52,867 bases of DNA from a virus (Duplodnaviria; Caudoviricetes), in IMG/VR virus record IMGVR_UViG_3300008255_000160, positions 1 to 52,867 of that record; one strand, given 5' to 3'. The notes under the pieces are model-generated. The model saw nothing but the letters and a program-made list of their open reading frames with translations. It had not been told where the DNA came from and searched no databases. Shown one piece after another: positions 1 through 15,272 of the stretch (its first letter is position 1; each line of letters begins with the position of its first letter). Made by a program: the position numbers and the translations under genes.

Positions 1-827
1 ACATCAACAAAGCACAAACTGCTTTGAATGCAGGTTTCAACACAAAGGCTGCCCGGAAAAATGCGTTGGACAACATTGGAAGAGCTTATGATCTGGTTCG
101 TCGCCAAACGTATGATTTTGAAACAACAGGCGAACTTCCATATTCTTTTGCACATTATCGTCCTGCCAAACACGAAGATGCACTATGCAATGATCAAACA
201 TTGATCAAGACAGTATCCCGACTGTTGTCACTTCGTGAGACAATTAAGAATGCTCTTATCAATAATCCGGTTTCAAATGCGCAACAGGAACGTGCTATTC
301 TTCAACGGTCACCCATTCCGGCGATTGCGGCAGAATTTGAACCGTTGAAGGCCAGTGTGAAACAAGATTACATTAATAAGGTTCGCACCATGGCCGCTGC
401 TTTGTTGGAAGAGTATAATAATGATTGGTCATCTTTATCTCAGATCAATGTTTATTCAAACAATCATCGTGTATGGACATTTGTTCGTAATCATGTCAAG
501 TATATTAACAACAAGCCTGCTGGTATTGACGAAGATCGTCTCGACAAGCTGGCTACACGTTATGCCAATGATCAGGTTGATGCCTTTGTTCACAAGCTGG
601 CGCTGAAACTGGTTGATCTGGAAAATGTTAAACTACATGGTGTCAACACAGGGTCATTTGAATTTGCATTGACGGGTAACCTGAATGACCAACGGGTGAA
701 AGTTGTACAAAACATAAAATATGGTTTGTCAAAATTCAATAATCCGTATGTCCAATGGCCCGCATTGATTTATGTCGATGGTAAAAAAGTAAGTGAGTTG
801 GAATTTCAAAAACTTACAAACAAATAA
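1..827 (+). CDS. hypothetical phage protein, probably 5'-partial
   Basis: 267-aa ORF whose frame stays open to the window edge; no recognised motif. Confidence 0.6.
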   Translation, partial: INKAQTALNAGFNTKAARKNALDNIGRAYDLVRRQTYDFETTGELPYSFAHYRPAKHEDALCNDQTLIKTVSRLLSLRETIKNALINNPVSNAQQERAILQRSPIPAIAAEFEPLKASVKQDYINKVRTMAAALLEEYNNDWSSLSQINVYSNNHRVWTFVRNHVKYINNKPAGIDEDRLDKLATRYANDQVDAFVHKLALKLVDLENVKLHGVNTGSFEFALTGNLNDQRVKVVQNIKYGLSKFNNPYVQWPALIYVDGKKVSELEFQKLTNK

Positions 828-851
828 AAACCATGCTGAACTGATGTTTTA

Positions 852-1196
852 TCAGTTCAGCAATTCGTTTTCTGGTACGTACTCGTTTTCGGTCATGTAT
901 AATGAAAGTACTTCATTTGCATAATAACCAAAACCCGGCATTTTGATAATATTGGTTGCATCTTTGCCCAATTCATCTGATAATTCGAAAGTATCGAATA
1001 TTTCACATTTGATGACATCTTCGGTTTGTTCTTTTCCGACAACCATCACAGCAGTATAAGAAACATCGCCATCAAATGTGTCATTCAGATGTTTGATATC
1101 AATGGCAATTCGCCAATTGGATATGTTTCCAAAGGTATCAAATTCTGCAAAAGCAACACTATCATCATGCCTGACAGCAAGCGTAAGTTCTTTCAT
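852..1196 (-). CDS. hypothetical protein
   Basis: ORF 852-1265, but its 5' part overlaps tRNA-Thr; ATG at 1196 (MKELTL) is the likelier start. Confidence 0.55.
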   Translation of the reverse strand: MKELTLAVRHDDSVAFAEFDTFGNISNWRIAIDIKHLNDTFDGDVSYTAVMVVGKEQTEDVIKCEIFDTFELSDELGKDATNIIKMPGFGYYANEVLSLYMTENEYVPENELLN

Positions 1197-1235
1197 ACTC
1201 TTATTTATCATCGTATGCTGATATTGTTGAAGAAA

Positions 1236-1310
1236 TGGTGCCGATGGTAGGATTTGCACCCACAACCTTCGCTTTACAAGAGCGCTGCACTACTGTTGTG
1301 CTACATCGGC
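1236..1310 (-). tRNA. tRNA-Thr(UGU)
   Basis: Cloverleaf with acceptor GCCGATG/CATCGGC, anticodon loop CTTGTAA and encoded ACCA; atypical T-loop TGCAAAT. Confidence 0.9.
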
Positions 1311-1810
1311 TAATAACTTTTCCCTTTAGCATATCGGAGACGGCGCTTATGTCTGCCATTCCTTCTATTTTGCCTTTATATGTTTTAGTTTGACTATGGT
1401 AATTTGGACACAATAGAGAAAGATTTTCTTTGGAATTATTTTCAGAGTTTTCATCTATATGTTCTAACTCTAATATAATTGCTTTGTTATTCCATTCGAT
1501 TATTCCACATTCCCAACATCCATTTTTAATTTCGGATAAAAACCTCCTAATAGACACTTTACCGGGAAACTGTATTTCTCCCCTTTGCCATTTTTCAATA
1601 TTTTCTTTATATTAAAAAATCAATATGGCATTTACTATTACAATTACAATACTTAGAGCTACTGTTTGCTAATTTAAAACCACAGTTATTACAATTTTTG
1701 GGTTCAGAACCATGTCTTCTGACACCAACATTGTTGTGACTAACAGAACAACTCCTACTACAAAACTTGGGATTTGCGGTTTCTTCGCCGCAAACAAGGC
1801 ATTTCGTTAT
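1310..1810 (-). pseudogene. degenerate HNH homing endonuclease with N-terminal Cys-rich zinc-finger repeats
   Basis: CLVC..KFCSRSC..CNNC N-terminus, then LELEHIDENSENNSKENLSLLCPNYHSQT core; frameshifts near 1615 and 1370; no intact ATG; CPNCH changed to CPNYH. Confidence 0.8.
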
Positions 1811-1858
1811 TCGAACTCTTTCCTGTTGATACAGGAAAATTTATTCTAGTTCGAAACG

Positions 1859-1880
1859 CTACCAACTGAGCTATGATGGC
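1859..1880 (-). pseudogene. 5' fragment of a tRNA gene (acceptor strand plus D-arm)
   Basis: GCCATCATAGCTCAGTTGGTAG, then abrupt divergence; no matching 3' half seen. Confidence 0.7.
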
Positions 1881-1885
1881 ATGAA

Positions 1886-2311
1886 TCAATCTATAACCAA
1901 AAATGGAGTCGATGTCAACAGTCTTTTATTTAAAGCGGAATTTGGTTCTTCTTCCCATTGATCATCATTTTTTCTTTTCCAGTGAAAATCACGTTCAGCA
2001 TACTTGATGTCAAATCCTTTTCTATCGGGTTTAACATAAAGGTGATACCAATAGTTTTGAAAGACTGATGGCTTTTCAATGAATTCCATACCACCCTGTT
2101 CGTCAAGCCATTTCATGATATGGTCTAATGATTTGTACGTTCTGGGATCAGTCGCTGTTGACTCACAAACTGGTGTTTGTATTTCGTGCACCAACATGAT
2201 ACCCAACTTACTCATCATGCCATATGAATATTCTGGTATCAGAAAGATTTTTGAATACTGTGTTTCAATTTGAATTAATGCTCTGTTGGTCATACATGAA
2301 TGATATGACAA
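1886..2311 (-). CDS. hypothetical protein
   Basis: 141-aa ORF co-oriented with neighbours. Confidence 0.55.
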   Translation of the reverse strand: MSYHSCMTNRALIQIETQYSKIFLIPEYSYGMMSKLGIMLVHEIQTPVCESTATDPRTYKSLDHIMKWLDEQGGMEFIEKPSVFQNYWYHLYVKPDRKGFDIKYAERDFHWKRKNDDQWEEEPNSALNKRLLTSTPFLVID

Positions 2312-2323
2312 TCAGAGTGAAAC

Positions 2324-3671: not shown

Positions 3672-4037
3672 TCAATATGCAAAAAGTGTGTGAACAACTG
3701 GCCCAACCATAGTCAGAGAACCAATAAACAAAGCCAAAGTAAAAGAACCAAGGAATGTTCTTTCTGCACTATCTATATTTGTTTCGCTCTTTTTAGATGA
3801 AGTAATAAGGTATCTAAAAGATATGAATACTAGCAGTATCAAAAATATTAAAGCAAAAAAGAATAAAAAGCTAATAAACACGTTTAGCTCTATTGAGGCA
3901 CTATCGTCATATGTTAGTGTTCTGAAAATAAAACTTACAATTGGTATTATTATCATTGAAGTTATTAAGGAAATCCAGACATCTCTTTTATTTCCAAATA
4001 TCTGGATTAAACTATTTATACGGGGTGTTCCAACCAT
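3672..4037 (-). CDS. membrane protein (about 3 TM helices)
   Basis: Three hydrophobic stretches; overlaps the end of the upstream ORF. Confidence 0.6.
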   Translation of the reverse strand: MVGTPRINSLIQIFGNKRDVWISLITSMIIIPIVSFIFRTLTYDDSASIELNVFISFLFFFALIFLILLVFISFRYLITSSKKSETNIDSAERTFLGSFTLALFIGSLTMVGPVVHTLFAY

Positions 4038-4540
4038 TGTTTACGATCATCTGCTCTAGTGGGATTGAATAACAGGTCAAGTTTTTCTTTCAGGTTCCCA
4101 TCATTCCAAAAAGGAATCAATTGCGGTGTTTCCAGAATGTCCCGCCATTGTTCGTCTTGTAATGTACCCAAACCTTTTGCCCTGATAATCTCCCATCCTT
4201 TATATTTAGCCGGGCTGAACAAATGATAATCCGAATGGTATATGTATTTCCTTTTGTTACCTTTTTTCAGAAGGACGTAAGGTGTCATGAGTTTGTTGAC
4301 AAAGGGATTATTACCATCGGCAAACAACTCTGGCCAATATTTCAAAAGAAAGTTAACAACTAGACACAGAATGTGGTACCCGTCACAATTATGGGTAAGT
4401 ATGTTATCACCATTGTTCCCAACAATAAAAAAACAATGATCTTCTGAATCCACGGTTATATCATAAACTTCGCTATCTGCCTCACATGACGACACATCGC
4501 TTACGCGGACCATTTCATATTCAGAATAATTCAAAACCAT
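4016..4540 (-). CDS. gyrB: split-intein C-fragment fused to the C-terminal part of type IIA topoisomerase B subunit
   Basis: VYDITV..HCFF..ILTHN|CDGYHI..KGLG; GGAG 6 nt before ATG 4540 (ORF track starts at 4552). Confidence 0.9.
   Translation of the reverse strand: MVLNYSEYEMVRVSDVSSCEADSEVYDITVDSEDHCFFIVGNNGDNILTHNCDGYHILCLVVNFLLKYWPELFADGNNPFVNKLMTPYVLLKKGNKRKYIYHSDYHLFSPAKYKGWEIIRAKGLGTLQDEQWRDILETPQLIPFWNDGNLKEKLDLLFNPTRADDRKQWLEHPV
4388..4540 (-). mobile_element. split intein IntC (51 aa)
   Basis: Intein blocks F and G, ending His-Asn before Cys+1. Confidence 0.9.
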
Positions 4541-4615
4541 TGTTAGCTCCATAACATGATACGTTTTTTAACAGATTCAATCATTTCTGTCAAATCTGAA
4601 ACAGCCAAGTTGTGA

Positions 4616-6385
4616 TCATTTTTTGATCAGTAATGTATCTCCCTTTTGAATATCACAGGCTTGTACCATTGTGACTTCCCCTTTTTTCATAACTGGGAAC
4701 AAATGTCCTTCGCTGCATTTGACAATGTTCCCATTGATGTTGATACTAATTGTTTTAGAAACTTGTTTTCTAATAGTGTTGGTTATTTTTGCAGAACCAT
4801 TTGTTCCGATCACTTCATCGCCAATGTTCAAATCCTGTATGGACTTAGGTCCATTCGGGGTTGCAACTTGAGTATCTTTAGCCAAACAGTCTTCGTCCGT
4901 AGCGATAAAAATCTTGCCATACCTCAGTTCATGGCGGCGGGCAGGCTTACCATATACCAGTCCAAGGGCTGAAACGATGTCAGACAAGGCTTGCGATTTC
5001 AAAGCGACAGCCGGAGTAACATCGTGAACATTCATGATTTTACCACGTAATGGTAAAATGCCATGGACATTGGGATCACGTTCATTAGTAATTAGATTTA
5101 CAGCCGAATCGCCTTCACCGATAATCAGGATACATTTCGAACGATCACGTCCATTGGCATCAATCAATTTGGCAACATTGGTTTTCGCTGCCTTTTTGGA
5201 AAGCGCCTGTGCCTCTTTTGTGTCCTTGGCGTGTGAACGGTCCACGGCCCGTTCAATAATTTGTCCCATCCATTCTGGGTGTTTGCGTTTGATAGCGGCA
5301 AACATATTATCATCCAGTCCGTCGCGAATCCATTTGGCGGCTTCCTGATTGACCAGATAATGTTTTGATTGTGAATTGAAATTTGGTGCGTCCATACGGG
5401 TAACAGCAAATACCAGCAGCCCTGCTGCAACATCAGAACGATTGAGTGTCACCTTTGCTCGTTTGGCTTCACGGCTGATACTTGTGATCAAGGATGAAAA
5501 AAATTTCGTACGGAATGCTTTAACATGTTCCCCACCCGTATATGCACAAATGCCATTCACAACGGCATGCATGTGTTCTTCATTGCCTTCATGAAAATTT
5601 GGAATGATATAGAATGTGTTGAAGAAGTTATTCTCCTTGGAATTAACTTCGAATTCAATAACATCATGCCCTTTGAAAAAATCCTTTGTGTTGATGCGTT
5701 TACCATTAAAGGTAAATTGCACCTTGGGATAAATGAAAGACAGTTCGTGAAGTCTGGCCTTCACTAGTTCTTCTGGAAGGATCAAATGTTTAAATACAGA
5801 TGATGATGGTGTAAATTGAACTTTGGTGCCATGTTTTGTGGCACCGGCAGATGACCGCTTGGGACGCCTGATGACCAATTCTTCATCATTAATATTGTCT
5901 TCTTCATATTCTTGGACATAATGAACACCATTGGACCAAACTTCGACTTTAAAATGTGAAGAGACATAATTGACTGCGGACGCACCAATTCCGTTGGTTC
6001 CGACGACATTTTCTCTTTTGTCAAAATTAGAACCGGCTCTGAGGCGCGTAAACACCATTTGAATTTGTTTGATTGGAATACCGGCCCCATCATCCTTGAC
6101 GGACATGGTGAGTGTTTCCGGATCAAATTCAACTTGAATCCTTTTTCCATTACCATGGCCAACAATTTCGTCCATGGCATTATCAAGCAATTCCCGAAAG
6201 GCGGTCAAAAGTGCTGGAACATATTCGACCTCTTGAAGTTCGAGTTTATGGCCATTGTAATTGACCATTGTTTCGTTCACGACTTCGCGTGACCCGAGAT
6301 ACATTTCTGTTCTCAGGCGCACGTGTTGCCAATCGGTCAATTCCTTGTTTTGGCGTTGTTTAAGTTTAGATGTACGAGGAGCCAT
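4616..6385 (-). CDS. gyrB: type IIA topoisomerase B subunit N-terminal part (GHKL ATPase, transducer, half TOPRIM) fused to split-intein N-fragment
   Basis: HVRLRTEMYLGS, ELLDNAMDE, DDGAGIP, GTNGIG, EGDSA, PLRGK, then ATDED|CLAKDT. Confidence 0.95.
   Translation of the reverse strand: MAPRTSKLKQRQNKELTDWQHVRLRTEMYLGSREVVNETMVNYNGHKLELQEVEYVPALLTAFRELLDNAMDEIVGHGNGKRIQVEFDPETLTMSVKDDGAGIPIKQIQMVFTRLRAGSNFDKRENVVGTNGIGASAVNYVSSHFKVEVWSNGVHYVQEYEEDNINDEELVIRRPKRSSAGATKHGTKVQFTPSSSVFKHLILPEELVKARLHELSFIYPKVQFTFNGKRINTKDFFKGHDVIEFEVNSKENNFFNTFYIIPNFHEGNEEHMHAVVNGICAYTGGEHVKAFRTKFFSSLITSISREAKRAKVTLNRSDVAAGLLVFAVTRMDAPNFNSQSKHYLVNQEAAKWIRDGLDDNMFAAIKRKHPEWMGQIIERAVDRSHAKDTKEAQALSKKAAKTNVAKLIDANGRDRSKCILIIGEGDSAVNLITNERDPNVHGILPLRGKIMNVHDVTPAVALKSQALSDIVSALGLVYGKPARRHELRYGKIFIATDEDCLAKDTQVATPNGPKSIQDLNIGDEVIGTNGSAKITNTIRKQVSKTISININGNIVKCSEGHLFPVMKKGEVTMVQACDIQKGDTLLIKK
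4619..4888 (-). mobile_element. split intein IntN (90 aa)
   Basis: Block A CLAKDTQV, block B CSEGH, ends ACDIQKGDTLLIKK-stop. Confidence 0.9.
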
Positions 6386-6398
6386 ATGATTTATCTTC

Positions 6399-6444
6399 TT
6401 GACATTTGAGAGGAAAGTATATAGAAAGGTTTATAGTTTGTCAA
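6399..6444. promoter_or_regulatory. overlapping divergent sigma70-type promoters for the two topoisomerase subunits
   Basis: Minus strand TTGACA(6444-6439)-N17-TATACT; plus strand TTGACA at 6399 with a weaker -10. Confidence 0.6.
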
Positions 6445-6461
6445 TGAAGGATTACAGCAGA

Positions 6462-7868
6462 ATGGCTGGCAACGTCGAATTTTTAGAACAATCGTTTCAC
6501 GAATATGCTGTCTACGTTAATAAAAATCGTGCAATACCTGATGCACGTGACGGATTGAAACAAGGTCAGCGCATCGCATTGCATTTAATGCGGTCCCGTT
6601 CTGGAAAGATAAAGGTTATTGCCTTGGCAGGCCAGATGATTGCCGAGGAACTTTATGTGCATGGTGATACAGCTGCAGCCGAATCGATTTCACAACTTGC
6701 AGCCCCATATAAGAACAATGTGCCGTTATTAACGGGACAAGGTTCCTTTGGATCACGCTCAAAGCCGACAGCATTTGCCTCACCAAGATATATTTATGTT
6801 TCCAGAGCACCAGCATCTGACAAGCTTTTATATACGGATGCTGATATTGTGCCATTGACTGAAAACCATGATGGTTCCAAATGGATGCCAGAATGTTTCT
6901 ACCCGATGGTTCCGACACATTTGATTAATGGTGTCGAAGGGATTGGTGTTGGTTATAGTGTGCGTATTTTTCCACGCAACATGACGGACCTGATCACCGC
7001 TATCACCAAATGTATTCGTGGCCAGAAATCCGATCTACCACGCATTGAACCTTGTTTTGATTATCTGGATAACCAAAGAGGCAAGTTCAAAGATTATAAC
7101 AAAGCTGGCAACATGGTATGGGAATTCACTGGTAGAGTAAAAATCAAAGACACCAGTACGGTTGTGGTGACAGAATTACCTGCAATGAATTTGACTGTTG
7201 AAAAATTCAAGGAACAACTTAATGAAATGGCCGAAAGAGGTGACATCAAAGAGTTCCGTGATAATTCTGCAAAACTGATTAATATTGAAATCAAGTTGAA
7301 ACGAGGACAATGCCGGGATTGGACAGAAGAAGATGCCATTGACTTTTTGAAACTTCGTAAAGAAGCATCTGAAACATTTGTTGTCACCAGTTTTGATGGT
7401 AAGGGCATTGTTCAATATTTCTATGACAAGGATCACAAATATCCTGATCCGGTTGAACGATATCTGCGGGAATGGACTGAATGGCGTTTTGCCAAATATG
7501 CCAACCGGTATGAAAACCTGATTAAACTGGCCGAACAACAGGCTTTGTATCTCCAATGTGTTAAAGCGTGTTTTGATCATGGTATGCCAGATCGTATATC
7601 CAAAAAGCAAAACCGGGCAGACATGAAAAGTGATATCGTTCAATGTGCGGCCAAAAACAAATATGTTGCTACCGATGAAATTGCCGACCGCATTTCAGCA
7701 AGAGCATCGTATTCGTGGACACGAGAAGCATTGAGAAAGACACTTGAAGAAATTATTGCAGTCAATGGTTCGATCCGGGAATACAAAATACTGTTGAAGT
7801 CAGATGACAAACGCCGTGATGTGTTTGTCGATGAGTTGAATTCCTTGAAAGGAATGAAGATTTCATAA
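6462..7868 (+). CDS. gyrA: type IIA topoisomerase A subunit (T4 gp52-like, no C-terminal pinwheel)
   Basis: NRAIPDARDGLKQGQR, YVHGD, GQGSFGS, catalytic ASPRY; ATG 6462 preferred over TTG 6399. Confidence 0.93.
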   Translation: MAGNVEFLEQSFHEYAVYVNKNRAIPDARDGLKQGQRIALHLMRSRSGKIKVIALAGQMIAEELYVHGDTAAAESISQLAAPYKNNVPLLTGQGSFGSRSKPTAFASPRYIYVSRAPASDKLLYTDADIVPLTENHDGSKWMPECFYPMVPTHLINGVEGIGVGYSVRIFPRNMTDLITAITKCIRGQKSDLPRIEPCFDYLDNQRGKFKDYNKAGNMVWEFTGRVKIKDTSTVVVTELPAMNLTVEKFKEQLNEMAERGDIKEFRDNSAKLINIEIKLKRGQCRDWTEEDAIDFLKLRKEASETFVVTSFDGKGIVQYFYDKDHKYPDPVERYLREWTEWRFAKYANRYENLIKLAEQQALYLQCVKACFDHGMPDRISKKQNRADMKSDIVQCAAKNKYVATDEIADRISARASYSWTREALRKTLEEIIAVNGSIREYKILLKSDDKRRDVFVDELNSLKGMKIS

Positions 7869-12406: not shown

Positions 12407-12530
12407 ACCATCTAGGTGTAAGTATCTTCACCTTATGATATAATTTATAGAAAGCGAGCACAAAATGGCAGCGAGAATGTCCTATTCTTGTAATGAGAAC
12501 CTATTATCAAAAACGTGGAGTACCCCCGAA

Positions 12531-15272
12531 ATGACAACCCCGGATACAATTGAAGTCATCAAAAGAGATGGATCAAGAGAAATACTAAATCTAGACAAAA
12601 TACACAAAGTTCTATTTTGGGCCTGTGAAGATATAACAGGTGTTTCTGTTTCAGAAATCGAGTTAAGAGCCCAACTTCAATTGGCTGATGGTATCAAAAC
12701 GACAGAAATACATGAAACCATAATCAGAGCTGCATCGGATTTGATTTCAGAGGAAACACCCAATTATCAATTTGTTGCAGCCCGTTTGATCAATTATCAA
12801 TTGCGCAAAGAGATTTATGGTGGGCCAACACCATGTTCGGTCAAAGAACTGGTTGTTCATAATGTGCAAGCTGGTGTCTATGATCAGATGCTATTGACCG
12901 AATTCAATGATGATGATTTCTTGCAATTTGATGATATCATTAAACACAAACGTGATTTTGAATTATCGTTTGTTGCCATGGAACAGTTCCGTGGCAAGTA
13001 TCTGGTTCGTAACAGAGTAACAGGACAGTTTTATGAAACACCACAAATGGCGTATTTGTTGATTGCTGCAACAATGTTTGTCAACGATGGCGAAAACCGT
13101 ATGGAGCATATCAAAGAATATTACGATATCATATCAACCCACAAGATATCACTGCCGACACCGGTTATGGCCAAGGCCAGAAAACCTGAAAGACAGTTTT
13201 CATCATGTGTGCTGGTCACAACGGATGACACAATGCGGTCCATCGAAGCAACAACGTCCGTCATCTATCGTTATATTTCGAACAGTGCTGGTCTGGGTAT
13301 TGATGTTGGAAGCATTAGAGCCATTGGTTCACAAATCAGAAACGGTGATACCGAGTCAACCGGGCTTATCCCCTTTATCCGCTCCTTTCAAAGTGCAGTA
13401 AAAAGCTGTAGTCAGGGTGGAATCCGTGGGGGCGCAGGTACGGTTACATACCCGTTCTTCCATTATGAATTTGATTCTCTTGTTGTACTAAAGAACAACA
13501 AGGGCACTGAAATGAATCGCATACGGCAACTGGATTATTGTGTTCAGTTTAACAGACTGGCATACCGCAGACTTACTCAAAACAAGGACATAACATTTTT
13601 CTCTCCACAAGATGTGCCAGACCTAATGGATGCATTTTATTCTGGCAACAATGATTTGTTCGAAGAACTTTATGTAAAATATGAAAACAATGATAGCATT
13701 CGTAAACACTCTATGAAAGCTATTGAACTGTTTTCATCATTAATGACTGAACGGAAAGAAACCGGTAGAATATACATTCAAAATATTGATCATGCGAATA
13801 ATCATGGATCATTCAAACCGGAACTGGCACCCATTAAACAAACAAACCTTTGTGTCACTGGTGATACAAGCATTACTGTTCTCCGGGTTAGTGGAGAAAT
13901 AGAAGAAGTGAACATTAGTGATCTTGGACAAATATTGTTTGAAGATGATGATGATACCTTTGTATGGTCCCACGATACAAAAACTAGTGAATCCAATTTC
14001 AAACCAATCAAGGCTTGGGCAGAAACATCAGCAAGCACCACGGTGATGCGTATAACAGATGAAACAACCGGAGTTTCCATTAAGTGTACTCCCGATCATC
14101 AGCTATATACTAAAAATAGAGGATATATTGCAGCAAAAGAGTTACACGAAGACGACGAACTCTTATATAAAGTACATTCAGCCAATAGTAAAATATTAAA
14201 AATAGAAACACTTGAGGAACAAGAAGCAGTATACGATATCACTGTAGGAGATAATGAAAATTTCTTTGCCAATGGTATTTTGGTACACAATTGCGTCGAG
14301 ATAGACCTCCCCACCCGTCCATTGGATGGCATTGAAGACCCCAATGGGTGGGTTGCATTGTGTACACTATCGGCCATCAATTGGGGTAAGATCAAAAGGC
14401 CGGAAGACTTTGAACATCCAGCACGGTTAGCGGTTCGTGCTTTGGACAATTTGATTGATTTTCAATCATATCCGGTCAAAGCAGCAGAAACGCATACAAA
14501 ATTATTCAGGCCTTTAGGTATTGGTATTATCAATCTTGCGTACTTTCTGGCAAAGAATGACAAAAAGTATGACAATGATGCCTTGGAACTAATTCATGAG
14601 TATGCAGAGGCGTGGTCATATTACTTGATACGTGCATCCGTTGATCTGGCCAAGGAGAAAGGACCATGTGAAGGCCTTCATATGACCAAGTACAGCGAAG
14701 GTGTTCTGCCTATTGATACCCGTGCCCGTTCGGTTGATACGCTTGTTGAACACAAGGAGCGGCTACCATGGGAAGAACTCAGAAACGATTTGAAAAAGTA
14801 TGGAATTCGTAATGCAACCCTGATGGCATTGATGCCTTCTGAAACTTCTGCCCAGATTGCGAATGCAACCAATGGAATTGAACCACCACGTGGACTGGTA
14901 TCTGAAAAAGTATCCAAACATGGTGTTTTGAAACAAGTCGTTCCTGAAATCCACAAATTGAAAAACAAATATGATTTACTCTGGGATCAACCGTCTCCTA
15001 CAGGGTATTTGAATATTATGGCAGTATTACAGACCTTTACTGACCAAGGAATTTCCGTGAATATCTCGTACAATCCCGAGTTGCATGAAGATGGTTCCCT
15101 GTCCATGAAGATGTTGATCAATGATTTGTTGCATTTCTACAAATTTGGTGGGAAACAATTATACTATCATAATACGTATGACGGCCAGCGCGATGAATCT
15201 TCTGATTATCAACAGGAACAACCAGTTCTTGAAGAATTAGAGGAAACAGAATGTGAAAGTTGTGTCCTTTAA
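12531..15272 (+). CDS. nrdA: ribonucleotide reductase class Ia alpha subunit with ATP cone and mini-intein
   Basis: VIKRDG, QFSSC, SQGGIRGG, TNL|C..HN|CVEI, LYY, C-terminal CESC; GGAG RBS before 12531 (track start 12465). Confidence 0.97.
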   Translation: MTTPDTIEVIKRDGSREILNLDKIHKVLFWACEDITGVSVSEIELRAQLQLADGIKTTEIHETIIRAASDLISEETPNYQFVAARLINYQLRKEIYGGPTPCSVKELVVHNVQAGVYDQMLLTEFNDDDFLQFDDIIKHKRDFELSFVAMEQFRGKYLVRNRVTGQFYETPQMAYLLIAATMFVNDGENRMEHIKEYYDIISTHKISLPTPVMAKARKPERQFSSCVLVTTDDTMRSIEATTSVIYRYISNSAGLGIDVGSIRAIGSQIRNGDTESTGLIPFIRSFQSAVKSCSQGGIRGGAGTVTYPFFHYEFDSLVVLKNNKGTEMNRIRQLDYCVQFNRLAYRRLTQNKDITFFSPQDVPDLMDAFYSGNNDLFEELYVKYENNDSIRKHSMKAIELFSSLMTERKETGRIYIQNIDHANNHGSFKPELAPIKQTNLCVTGDTSITVLRVSGEIEEVNISDLGQILFEDDDDTFVWSHDTKTSESNFKPIKAWAETSASTTVMRITDETTGVSIKCTPDHQLYTKNRGYIAAKELHEDDELLYKVHSANSKILKIETLEEQEAVYDITVGDNENFFANGILVHNCVEIDLPTRPLDGIEDPNGWVALCTLSAINWGKIKRPEDFEHPARLAVRALDNLIDFQSYPVKAAETHTKLFRPLGIGIINLAYFLAKNDKKYDNDALELIHEYAEAWSYYLIRASVDLAKEKGPCEGLHMTKYSEGVLPIDTRARSVDTLVEHKERLPWEELRNDLKKYGIRNATLMALMPSETSAQIANATNGIEPPRGLVSEKVSKHGVLKQVVPEIHKLKNKYDLLWDQPSPTGYLNIMAVLQTFTDQGISVNISYNPELHEDGSLSMKMLINDLLHFYKFGGKQLYYHNTYDGQRDESSDYQQEQPVLEELEETECESCVL
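13851..14291 (+). mobile_element. cis-splicing mini-intein (147 aa, no endonuclease) in NrdA
   Basis: CVTGDT..CTPDH..VYDITV..ILVHN, followed by the thiyl-radical Cys. Confidence 0.95.

Follow-up and report, generated by a model that had tools for sequence, protein, structure and literature searches.

A probable naturally split intein within the DxDxDG metal-binding motif of a jumbo-phage type II topoisomerase

The virus record IMGVR_UViG_3300008255_000160 of IMG/VR (52,867 bases, estimated completeness about 16%; the whole of this stretch is the window referred to below) encodes the large subunit of a type II topoisomerase in two open reading frames (ORFs) on its minus strand. Between the two parts of this jumbo-phage enzyme there very probably lies a naturally split intein of class 1 that is functional and of the gp41-1 type; it interrupts the DxDxDG motif immediately after the third Asp. 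An earlier note on this DNA had proposed a split intein inside this Toprim motif, and the proposal is upheld by exact insertion relative to an intein-free relative, homology to gp41-1, the presence of the catalytic residues, a conserved split point and recurrence in independent assemblies. Trans-splicing itself we infer, from homology and from the opposite charges of the two halves; the residues needed for splicing are present and conserved, and the split point is that of a large family.

ORF1 (6385-4616, minus strand, 589 amino acids (aa)) begins with the N-extein (4889-6385), residues 1-499 of the large subunit, which comprises the GHKL ATPase and GyrB transducer domains and the beginning of Toprim (Pfam HATPase_c, DNA_gyraseB and Toprim, the last over residues 420-499) and ends ..GKIFIATDED. 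The next 90 residues are non-topoisomerase and constitute the N-terminal half of the intein (IntN, 270 nt, 4619-4888, minus strand), which reads CLAKDT..CSEGH..DIQKGDTLLIKK from Cys1 (TGT, 4888-4886) to ..DTLLIKK, matches gp41-1 and, below their cut-offs, Pfam Hint_2 and NCBIfam intein_Nterm, and is followed directly by the TGA that closes ORF1 (4616-4618). A spacer of 75 nt, as read from the sequence (4541-4615; 63 nt if counted to an earlier ATG), separates this stop from ORF2. Its frame is the frame of both ORFs, with three in-frame stops (TGA 4618-4616, TGA 4579-4577 and TAA 4570-4568); an A6 run (4569-4564) lies inside the spacer, and another A run (4624-4619) abuts the TGA of ORF1. ORF2 starts at an ATG at 4540, with GGAG (4550-4547) six bases upstream; an alternative in-frame ATG at 4552 (MELT-MVLNY) has no Shine-Dalgarno-like motif ahead of it. 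The first 51 residues of ORF2 form the C-terminal half (IntC, MVLNYSEYEMV..DNILTHN, 4388-4540, minus strand), identified by NCBIfam intein_Cterm and by alignment with eight IntC sequences from viral loci, and the C-extein follows (4016-4387, minus strand): Cys+1 (4387-4385), then DGYHILC.., 123 aa in all and a TAA (4018-4016), providing the remainder of Toprim and the TOPRIM_C domain (Pfam TOPRIM_C). The DxDxDG motif is contiguous only once the intein is removed. This anatomy agrees throughout with the earlier note, which had described an ORF ending in ATDED/CLAKDT.. (a slash marks a splice junction), a 90-aa IntN and a stop, then a spacer with three in-frame stops, here two TGA and one TAA, and then a second ORF with GGAG and a 51-aa IntC ending THN/CDGYHI.

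The limits of the insertion can be read from a related virus record, L003 (335,552 bases, with terminal repeats, rated complete), which has the gene order of the window and whose large subunit is one uninterrupted 646-aa gene, about 76% identical to the window's and reading ATDEDQDGYHI. The N-extein is identical to it at 378 of 499 residues and the C-extein at 89 of 122 (73%). Around the junction the protein of L003 reads IATDEDQDGYHILC and its DNA GACGAAGAC/CAAGATGGG, against GACGAAGAC/TGT..intein..AAT/TGTGACGGG in the window; from this comparison, the foreign segment runs from Cys1 through the Asn, and the Gln of the motif has been exchanged for the +1 Cys. The NCBIfam GyrB model NF004189 is left in ORF1 at model position 504 and re-entered in ORF2 at 504, the extein matches obtained by tblastn in GenBank phages all end at residue 499, and an intein profile found no match anywhere in the L003 record. 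Two further intein-free loci, L034 (3253) and L035 (1834), read DADCDG, with Cys at the position equal to +1, and a Cys at this position is therefore compatible with the enzyme; in these loci it may be a trace left when an intein was lost precisely, or the site may have been pre-adapted.

Among all PDB sequences, the best match of IntN (phmmer) is the naturally split gp41-1 intein 6qaz (E 7.6e-9, residues 5-74), the two having in common a block-B stretch Cys-Ser-Glu-x-His-Leu-Phe-Pro. Inteins are customarily described by lettered blocks, of which B, F and G are used here. Cys1, directly behind ..TDED, is invariant in all 20 aligned IntN sequences of the family, and block B corresponds to Ser59-Glu-Gly-His62 of IntN, its His being at least 90% conserved in the same 20. 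When IntC is set beside the eight viral-locus IntCs, Y8, D27, F37, L48, H50 and N51 are invariant, and the block-F Asp (D27), the His-Asn pair (H50, N51) and Cys+1 recur in 9/9 sequences. Judged on sequence, the match to inteins is well beyond chance.

The window's intein is nonetheless a relative of the gp41-1 family, narrowly defined, and not one of its members. The two share an origin in environmental phage and a terminal His-Asn, but gp41-1 resides in the gp41 helicase and not in a topoisomerase, identity is about one third over the aligned part, and the window's intein differs in having Cys as its +1 residue and no endonuclease gene between its halves. The gp41-1 halves measure about 88 aa (IntN) and 37 aa (IntC), compared with 90 and 51 in the window. 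Net charge is +4 for IntN and -10 for IntC, opposite signs that would fit a charge-charge interface of the gp41-1 type; charge-charge contacts between the halves are stressed for the gp41-1 structure in the available part of its description (10.1101/546465).

The split recurs well beyond this locus. A HMMER scan of 1.84 billion cluster representatives, with 30 extein residues and IntN as query (E <= 0.001), gave 510 matches; of the best 150, 147 could be aligned by BLAST, and 42 of these 147 have the topoisomerase DxD/C junction. In 29 of the 42 junction clusters the protein stops 87-97 residues past Cys1 (at exactly 91 in 17 of them), while the other 13 run on, and 11 of these 13 cis relatives contain contiguous mini-inteins of 134-157 aa that end HN/CDG and in which the halves are joined by a short linker exactly at the window's split point. 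The earlier note had suggested looking for relatives without the intein or with a cis allele; both exist, the first in L003 and the second in these 11 mini-inteins. A profile of the C-half, made from five sequences, matched 373 proteins; 118 newly listed ones were inspected, and 101 start with Met and an IntC of 40-63 aa (48-55 aa in 99), all ending HN/C; the IntC start assigned in the window agrees with P0004 and 101 further proteins. As lower bounds, this gives 29 or more N-half clusters (at 50% identity) and 101 or more C-half clusters (at 90% identity), the C-half proteins coming from sources that include NCBI and Tara. No member among the matches found exceeds 42% identity to the window's intein. 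Because the split point is common to dozens of diverged lineages, the split is not a recent accident.

In 50,697 GenBank phage records, tblastn with 30 extein residues and IntN found the topoisomerase junction in none, the 12 records that matched doing so through the intein part only, in other host genes (ribonucleotide reductase, portal); a word-indexed search with ORF1 residues 480-589 returned 45 candidates, none of which scored. An IntN tree (53 sequences, 92 columns) is largely unresolved, with a bootstrap that did not converge and long branches that meet, and gives the window no supported sister. Cis and split forms interleave in it, with 12 label changes of which at least four are forced by well-supported branches, and our rough conclusion is that the two forms have interconverted more than once.

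Both frame breaks lie beside A6 runs, and a difference between A6 and A7 at the second run is real, as would be expected if an assembly or homopolymer sequencing artefact had broken a continuous cis-intein gene. The stretch is present in 24 listed runs from 21 studies (aquifer, groundwater or hot-spring metagenomes), and the ORF2 protein occurs in exact form on 11 contigs, and that of ORF1 on three, from three source collections (JGI, Logan, ENA), which argues against such an artefact. Four runs were compared, as contigs and not as raw reads: three from aquifer studies of one year and one from a hot spring, whose sample is flagged as a possible source. Nine contig pieces from the four match the window over 4300-5000 except for one inserted spacer base, and one of them covers the spacer and both intein halves (4300-4840). 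The first A run and the TGA behind it are identical in all covering contigs (4/4 runs, and the metagenome contig L051, which retains A6-TGA at the end of ORF1), whereas A7 replaces A6 at 4569-4564 in one contig of run X5, in L051 and in protein P0006. The second and third stops lie between the A runs and not within them, and altering one run alone never opens the frame. We consider an artefact extremely improbable; the spacer had been named in the earlier note as a possible assembly error, and it recurs with the stop in contigs of four runs, the A6/A7 difference being the sole variant. One protein of the ORF1 cluster, P0009 (309 aa), is identical to ORF1 over about 275 residues and then continues as unrelated sequence, perhaps because the short contig behind it is chimeric or carries a frameshift.

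In the A7 allele the frame of the C-half is open upstream nearly to the stop of ORF1. The +1 frame of the spacer is open from the base after that stop and in the A7 allele leads straight into IntC, and a product read through in this way would have a linker of about 25 aa, near the linker lengths of the cis relatives. Recoding could in principle join the two ORFs into one product, whose intein would then splice in cis, through a +1 shift at AAA-TGA in the A7 allele; the window's A6 allele would also need a -1 shift at the second A run, and this requirement for two shifts counts against it. The spacer RNA shows no significant structure (z -0.76), and there is no slippery heptamer in the right frame at the first site. 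Relatives have whole genes or very different spacers between the halves, so that the route is impossible family-wide, and the A6/A7 indel tolerated in the spacer suggests that it is non-coding. Recoding is accordingly a highly improbable account of the locus.

Phage T4 has a large subunit that is also broken in this region. In T4 the native sequence of gp39 stops about 20 residues before the motif (NC_000866 record and translations), gp60 carries ..IMTDADHDG, and a 50-nt bypass begins right after that Gly; the enzyme and the Toprim region are those of the window, and only a few codons separate the bypass from the intein site. Both genes were broken by a mobile element, in T4 by MobA, and according to the available part of a preprint MobA always inserts in Toprim, splitting a metal site (10.1101/2022.08.31.505936). 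T4 differs in having no intein, in the unrelated extensions at the C-terminus of one piece and the N-terminus of the other, and in that its pieces stay non-covalent; the window does not show the T4-type MobA split, which is marked by an HNH MobA gene, conserved C- and N-terminal extensions and a 50-nt bypass, and it has no gene in its spacer. The T4 extensions (gp39 C-terminal, gp60 N-terminal) were also considered as relics of a split intein, and this was rejected: set against the IntN and IntC profiles with hhalign, one comparison aligns only extein columns and the other has a probability of 0.3%, a rejection that holds at the sensitivity of hhalign.

Several observations weigh against a functional trans-splicing intein in the window. 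The T4 topoisomerase, split in this region, works without covalent joining (10.1101/2022.08.31.505936, in the part available); both breaks in the window adjoin A6 runs, which recent decay by frameshift would also lead one to expect; and no RNA run is among the 24 listed runs bearing the stretch. Of the intein profiles, Pfam Intein_splicing, read through the stops, matches 4388-4795 at E 5.3e-8 with 27.9 bits, below its cut-off of 35.8, and NCBIfam intein_Nterm on IntN reaches 18.5 bits against 24.5; Pfam Hint_2 at ORF1 residues 500-546 likewise has 24.6 bits against 28.4, although all three are significant by E-value despite these bit scores. Block B has Ser where most inteins carry Thr (gp41-1 shares the Ser), and IntC with six extein residues has no match among PDB sequences at E up to 10. 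Shine-Dalgarno-like motifs are found at 13 of the 38 window ORFs, so GGAG gives modest support for the ORF2 start. In the profile search of the halves that the earlier note had proposed, NCBIfam intein_Cterm on IntC, at 19.3 bits, exceeds its cut-off of 15.6, while intein_Nterm and Intein_splicing stay below theirs.

A rival reading has halves that no longer splice and either dock non-covalently, as a three-protein enzyme like T4 gp39/gp60/gp52, or do not associate at all, with a recent pseudogene as a variant; the T4 split about 20 residues upstream, the A6 runs at both breaks and the two sub-threshold profile scores are what speak for such docking or decay. However, all splicing residues are conserved across a family whose identity to the window stays below 45%, and docking would not need them; an unspliced 141-aa HINT domain would occupy the DxDxDG metal site; and the C-extein is intact and retains its 73% identity to that of the relative. 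We therefore hold this reading to be unlikely and a splicing intein to be the better account. The earlier note's claim that active enzyme arises only by trans-splicing is weaker in this respect: it is the most likely reading, but an inferred one, given that T4 manages with a non-covalent split. The note's further suggestions, that the halves make an orthogonal pair and that splicing is a post-translational control point, may also hold.

If the intein works as its sequence suggests, ORF1 and ORF2 would be made from one transcript. A promoter-like site, TTGACA-17-TATACT (11/12), lies ahead of ORF1 at 6444-6416 on the minus strand, and neither a terminator-like nor a promoter-like site was found in the spacer on that strand. 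The basic IntN and the acidic IntC would associate and fold into one HINT domain, in which Cys1 would undergo an N-S acyl shift to a thioester and the N-extein would then pass to Cys+1. Cyclisation of Asn51 and an S-N shift would release a 622-residue subunit reading ..IATDED-CDGYHI.., whose metal-binding motif would be contiguous only after splicing and which would then pair with the gp52-like subunit encoded next to it. Were splicing obligatory in this way, with two Cys nucleophiles, maturation of the topoisomerase could be sensitive to redox or to the stoichiometry of the halves.

Relatives show how such a locus might have come about. In 10 IMG/VR loci an IntN of 91-94 aa is followed by a stop, and the IntC gene lies within eight of the fetched loci. 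The halves adjoin, as in the window, in L023 (66 bases apart) and L031 (15 or 27 bases), whereas six of the eight have 1.0-1.8 kb with other genes between the IntN and IntC genes. In L026-L028 matches to PHROGs homing-endonuclease families were obtained for the interposed genes (best E 6e-15), the C-half of L026 being absent from its fetched locus; L025 and L029 give weak matches to an HNH-endonuclease family, the match in L030 is to an unnamed PHROGs family only, and the gene that separates the topoisomerase halves of L033 encodes a DNA methylase and no endonuclease. Counted over the six loci, five have matches to endonuclease families, three of them clear and two weak. The window has no free-standing endonuclease gene between the halves, only the 75 nt. 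In the available text of Dassa et al. 2009 (PMC2677866), 'fractured genes' consist, as here, of an N part with an in-frame IntN and a stop, then Met-IntC and the C part, on the same strand and adjacent; the locus gp41-7, which like the window has no endonuclease gene between the halves, is given there as step III, endonuclease loss. The window is the endonuclease-free form of this published layout, and its history is likely to be that of the published gene-breaking model, in which a contiguous mini-intein at this position would first have been fractured by a free-standing homing endonuclease gene; with the later disappearance of that gene, a short spacer would remain.

Neither topoisomerase nor gyrase occurs as a word in the text of PMC2677866, and topoisomerase is not among the enzymes that it names. 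The nearest precedent found is MGS5, a Topo2L ORF from a metagenome that is interrupted by a VSR endonuclease with Hint and HintC at its flanks (10.1101/2022.08.31.505936): like the window, it is a fractured topoisomerase II gene with a split intein, but in the available part of that source its break is placed in ORF1, upstream of where MobA inserts, it has the endonuclease present, and is treated in one sentence and a figure, with no family analysis. At the same DxD/xDG position a giant-virus metagenome-assembled genome (MAG), L005, has a contiguous intein (..CDQD/S..(408 aa)..VHN/TDGSH), which differs from the window's in being a single cis-splicing polypeptide with Ser1, Thr+1 and a large insert. 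For CroV, a 'Top2-a' intein is given in Table 3 of PMC3423634 (as far as that source was available), and it may well sit at this site. In the literature searched we found no account of a split intein at this topoisomerase site; further loci may be listed in the supplements to Dassa 2009 and to the bypass preprint.

Some relatives have the large subunit in three genes that follow one another: L031 (1036-3996, plus strand) and L033 (2851-5443), with proteins P0020 and P0021 as further cases. In these, besides the split intein at DxD/CDG, a second, different one occupies another Toprim site, ..EGD/../SA.., and the middle gene has the form IntC(a)-extein-IntN(b). If this reading is true, the two split inteins must be mutually orthogonal in the infected cell; among the titles and abstract starts seen, we found no natural protein needing two trans-splicing reactions. 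A related set of 15 of the 118 listed C-half proteins (P0256-P0276, about 240 aa) begins with the IntC of the second site (..SHN/SA..) and has an uninterrupted DxDxDG, and these appear to be two-piece topoisomerases split at the other Toprim site. In L031, moreover, the gp52-like subunit (132-713, minus strand) ends in an intein N-half (..YHHGN/CLDPETK.., Pfam Intein_splicing E 2.7e-6), so that both topoisomerase subunits are fractured there. L033 also has, at 656-2322 (plus strand), two adjoining ORFs split by another split intein (..GGGSA/CFVGN.. and ..VVHN/CTTSA..), which we take, by eye and unchecked against a family library, to be IMP dehydrogenase, resembling the published IMPDH-1 locus.

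With the DxD/xDG site of the topoisomerase II Toprim, an element of a known kind gains a new host gene and a new site, though not a new principle, and the window is one member of a widespread family that matches the known fractured-gene arrangement. It adds topoisomerase II to the short list of natural split-intein hosts, at a widely used site. Mobile elements have broken one short, highly conserved stretch of a phage gene in three ways: by the MobA split and bypass of T4, by contiguous inteins and by split inteins. We suggest tentatively, as a possibility that falls short of being probable, that the family is a large one of natural split inteins in the metal motif of viral topoisomerase II, of which we found no description, and that the window holds a new fast pair of the gp41-1 class whose native junctions are Asp(-1)/Cys(+1). 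Tools for protein ligation can be built from natural pairs such as these, and the three-piece relatives point to pairs used side by side; the wider family, these relatives included, is the more interesting lead. There is also a consequence for annotation: among those listed, such halves are named 'DNA gyrase/topoisomerase IV subunit B' or 'DNA topoisomerase-2' only, and under such plain names they look like truncated genes.

The partner subunit is encoded divergently, outside the intein, at 6399-7868 (plus strand; T4 gp52 / GyrA-like breakage-reunion, Pfam DNA_topoisoIV E 3e-65). It is identical to its L003 counterpart at 334 of 467 residues, the alignment starting at residue 22 of the listed ORF; the listed TTG start is probably too far upstream, and the true start is probably the ATG at 6462. 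Across ORF1, ORF2 and this gp52-like neighbour all the Pfam domains of the two-subunit form of type IIA topoisomerase are present. The closest cultured matches of the topoisomerase, at about 40% protein identity, are in jumbo phages of Sinorhizobium, Agrobacterium, Escherichia and Klebsiella. The replication module of the window further includes a ribonucleotide reductase, a family-B DNA polymerase, an ATP-dependent ligase and a helicase.

The large subunit of the ribonucleotide reductase (ORF 12465-15272) itself contains a contiguous 147-aa mini-intein (13851-14291, plus strand; ..KQTNL/C...LVHN/CVEI..) with no endonuclease domain. Its similarity to the topoisomerase intein is weak, local alignment giving 7 of 24 identical residues in the IntN part and 12 of 40 in the IntC part, and the complete relative G001 is without both inteins. 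Finally, a D6/D11-like helicase in the giant-virus MAG L022 (ORF 2-2923) carries two inteins: the first, after the GGGK P-loop, opens with CLAKDTQV, the same eight residues as the window's IntN, and the second follows ..ITDE/.

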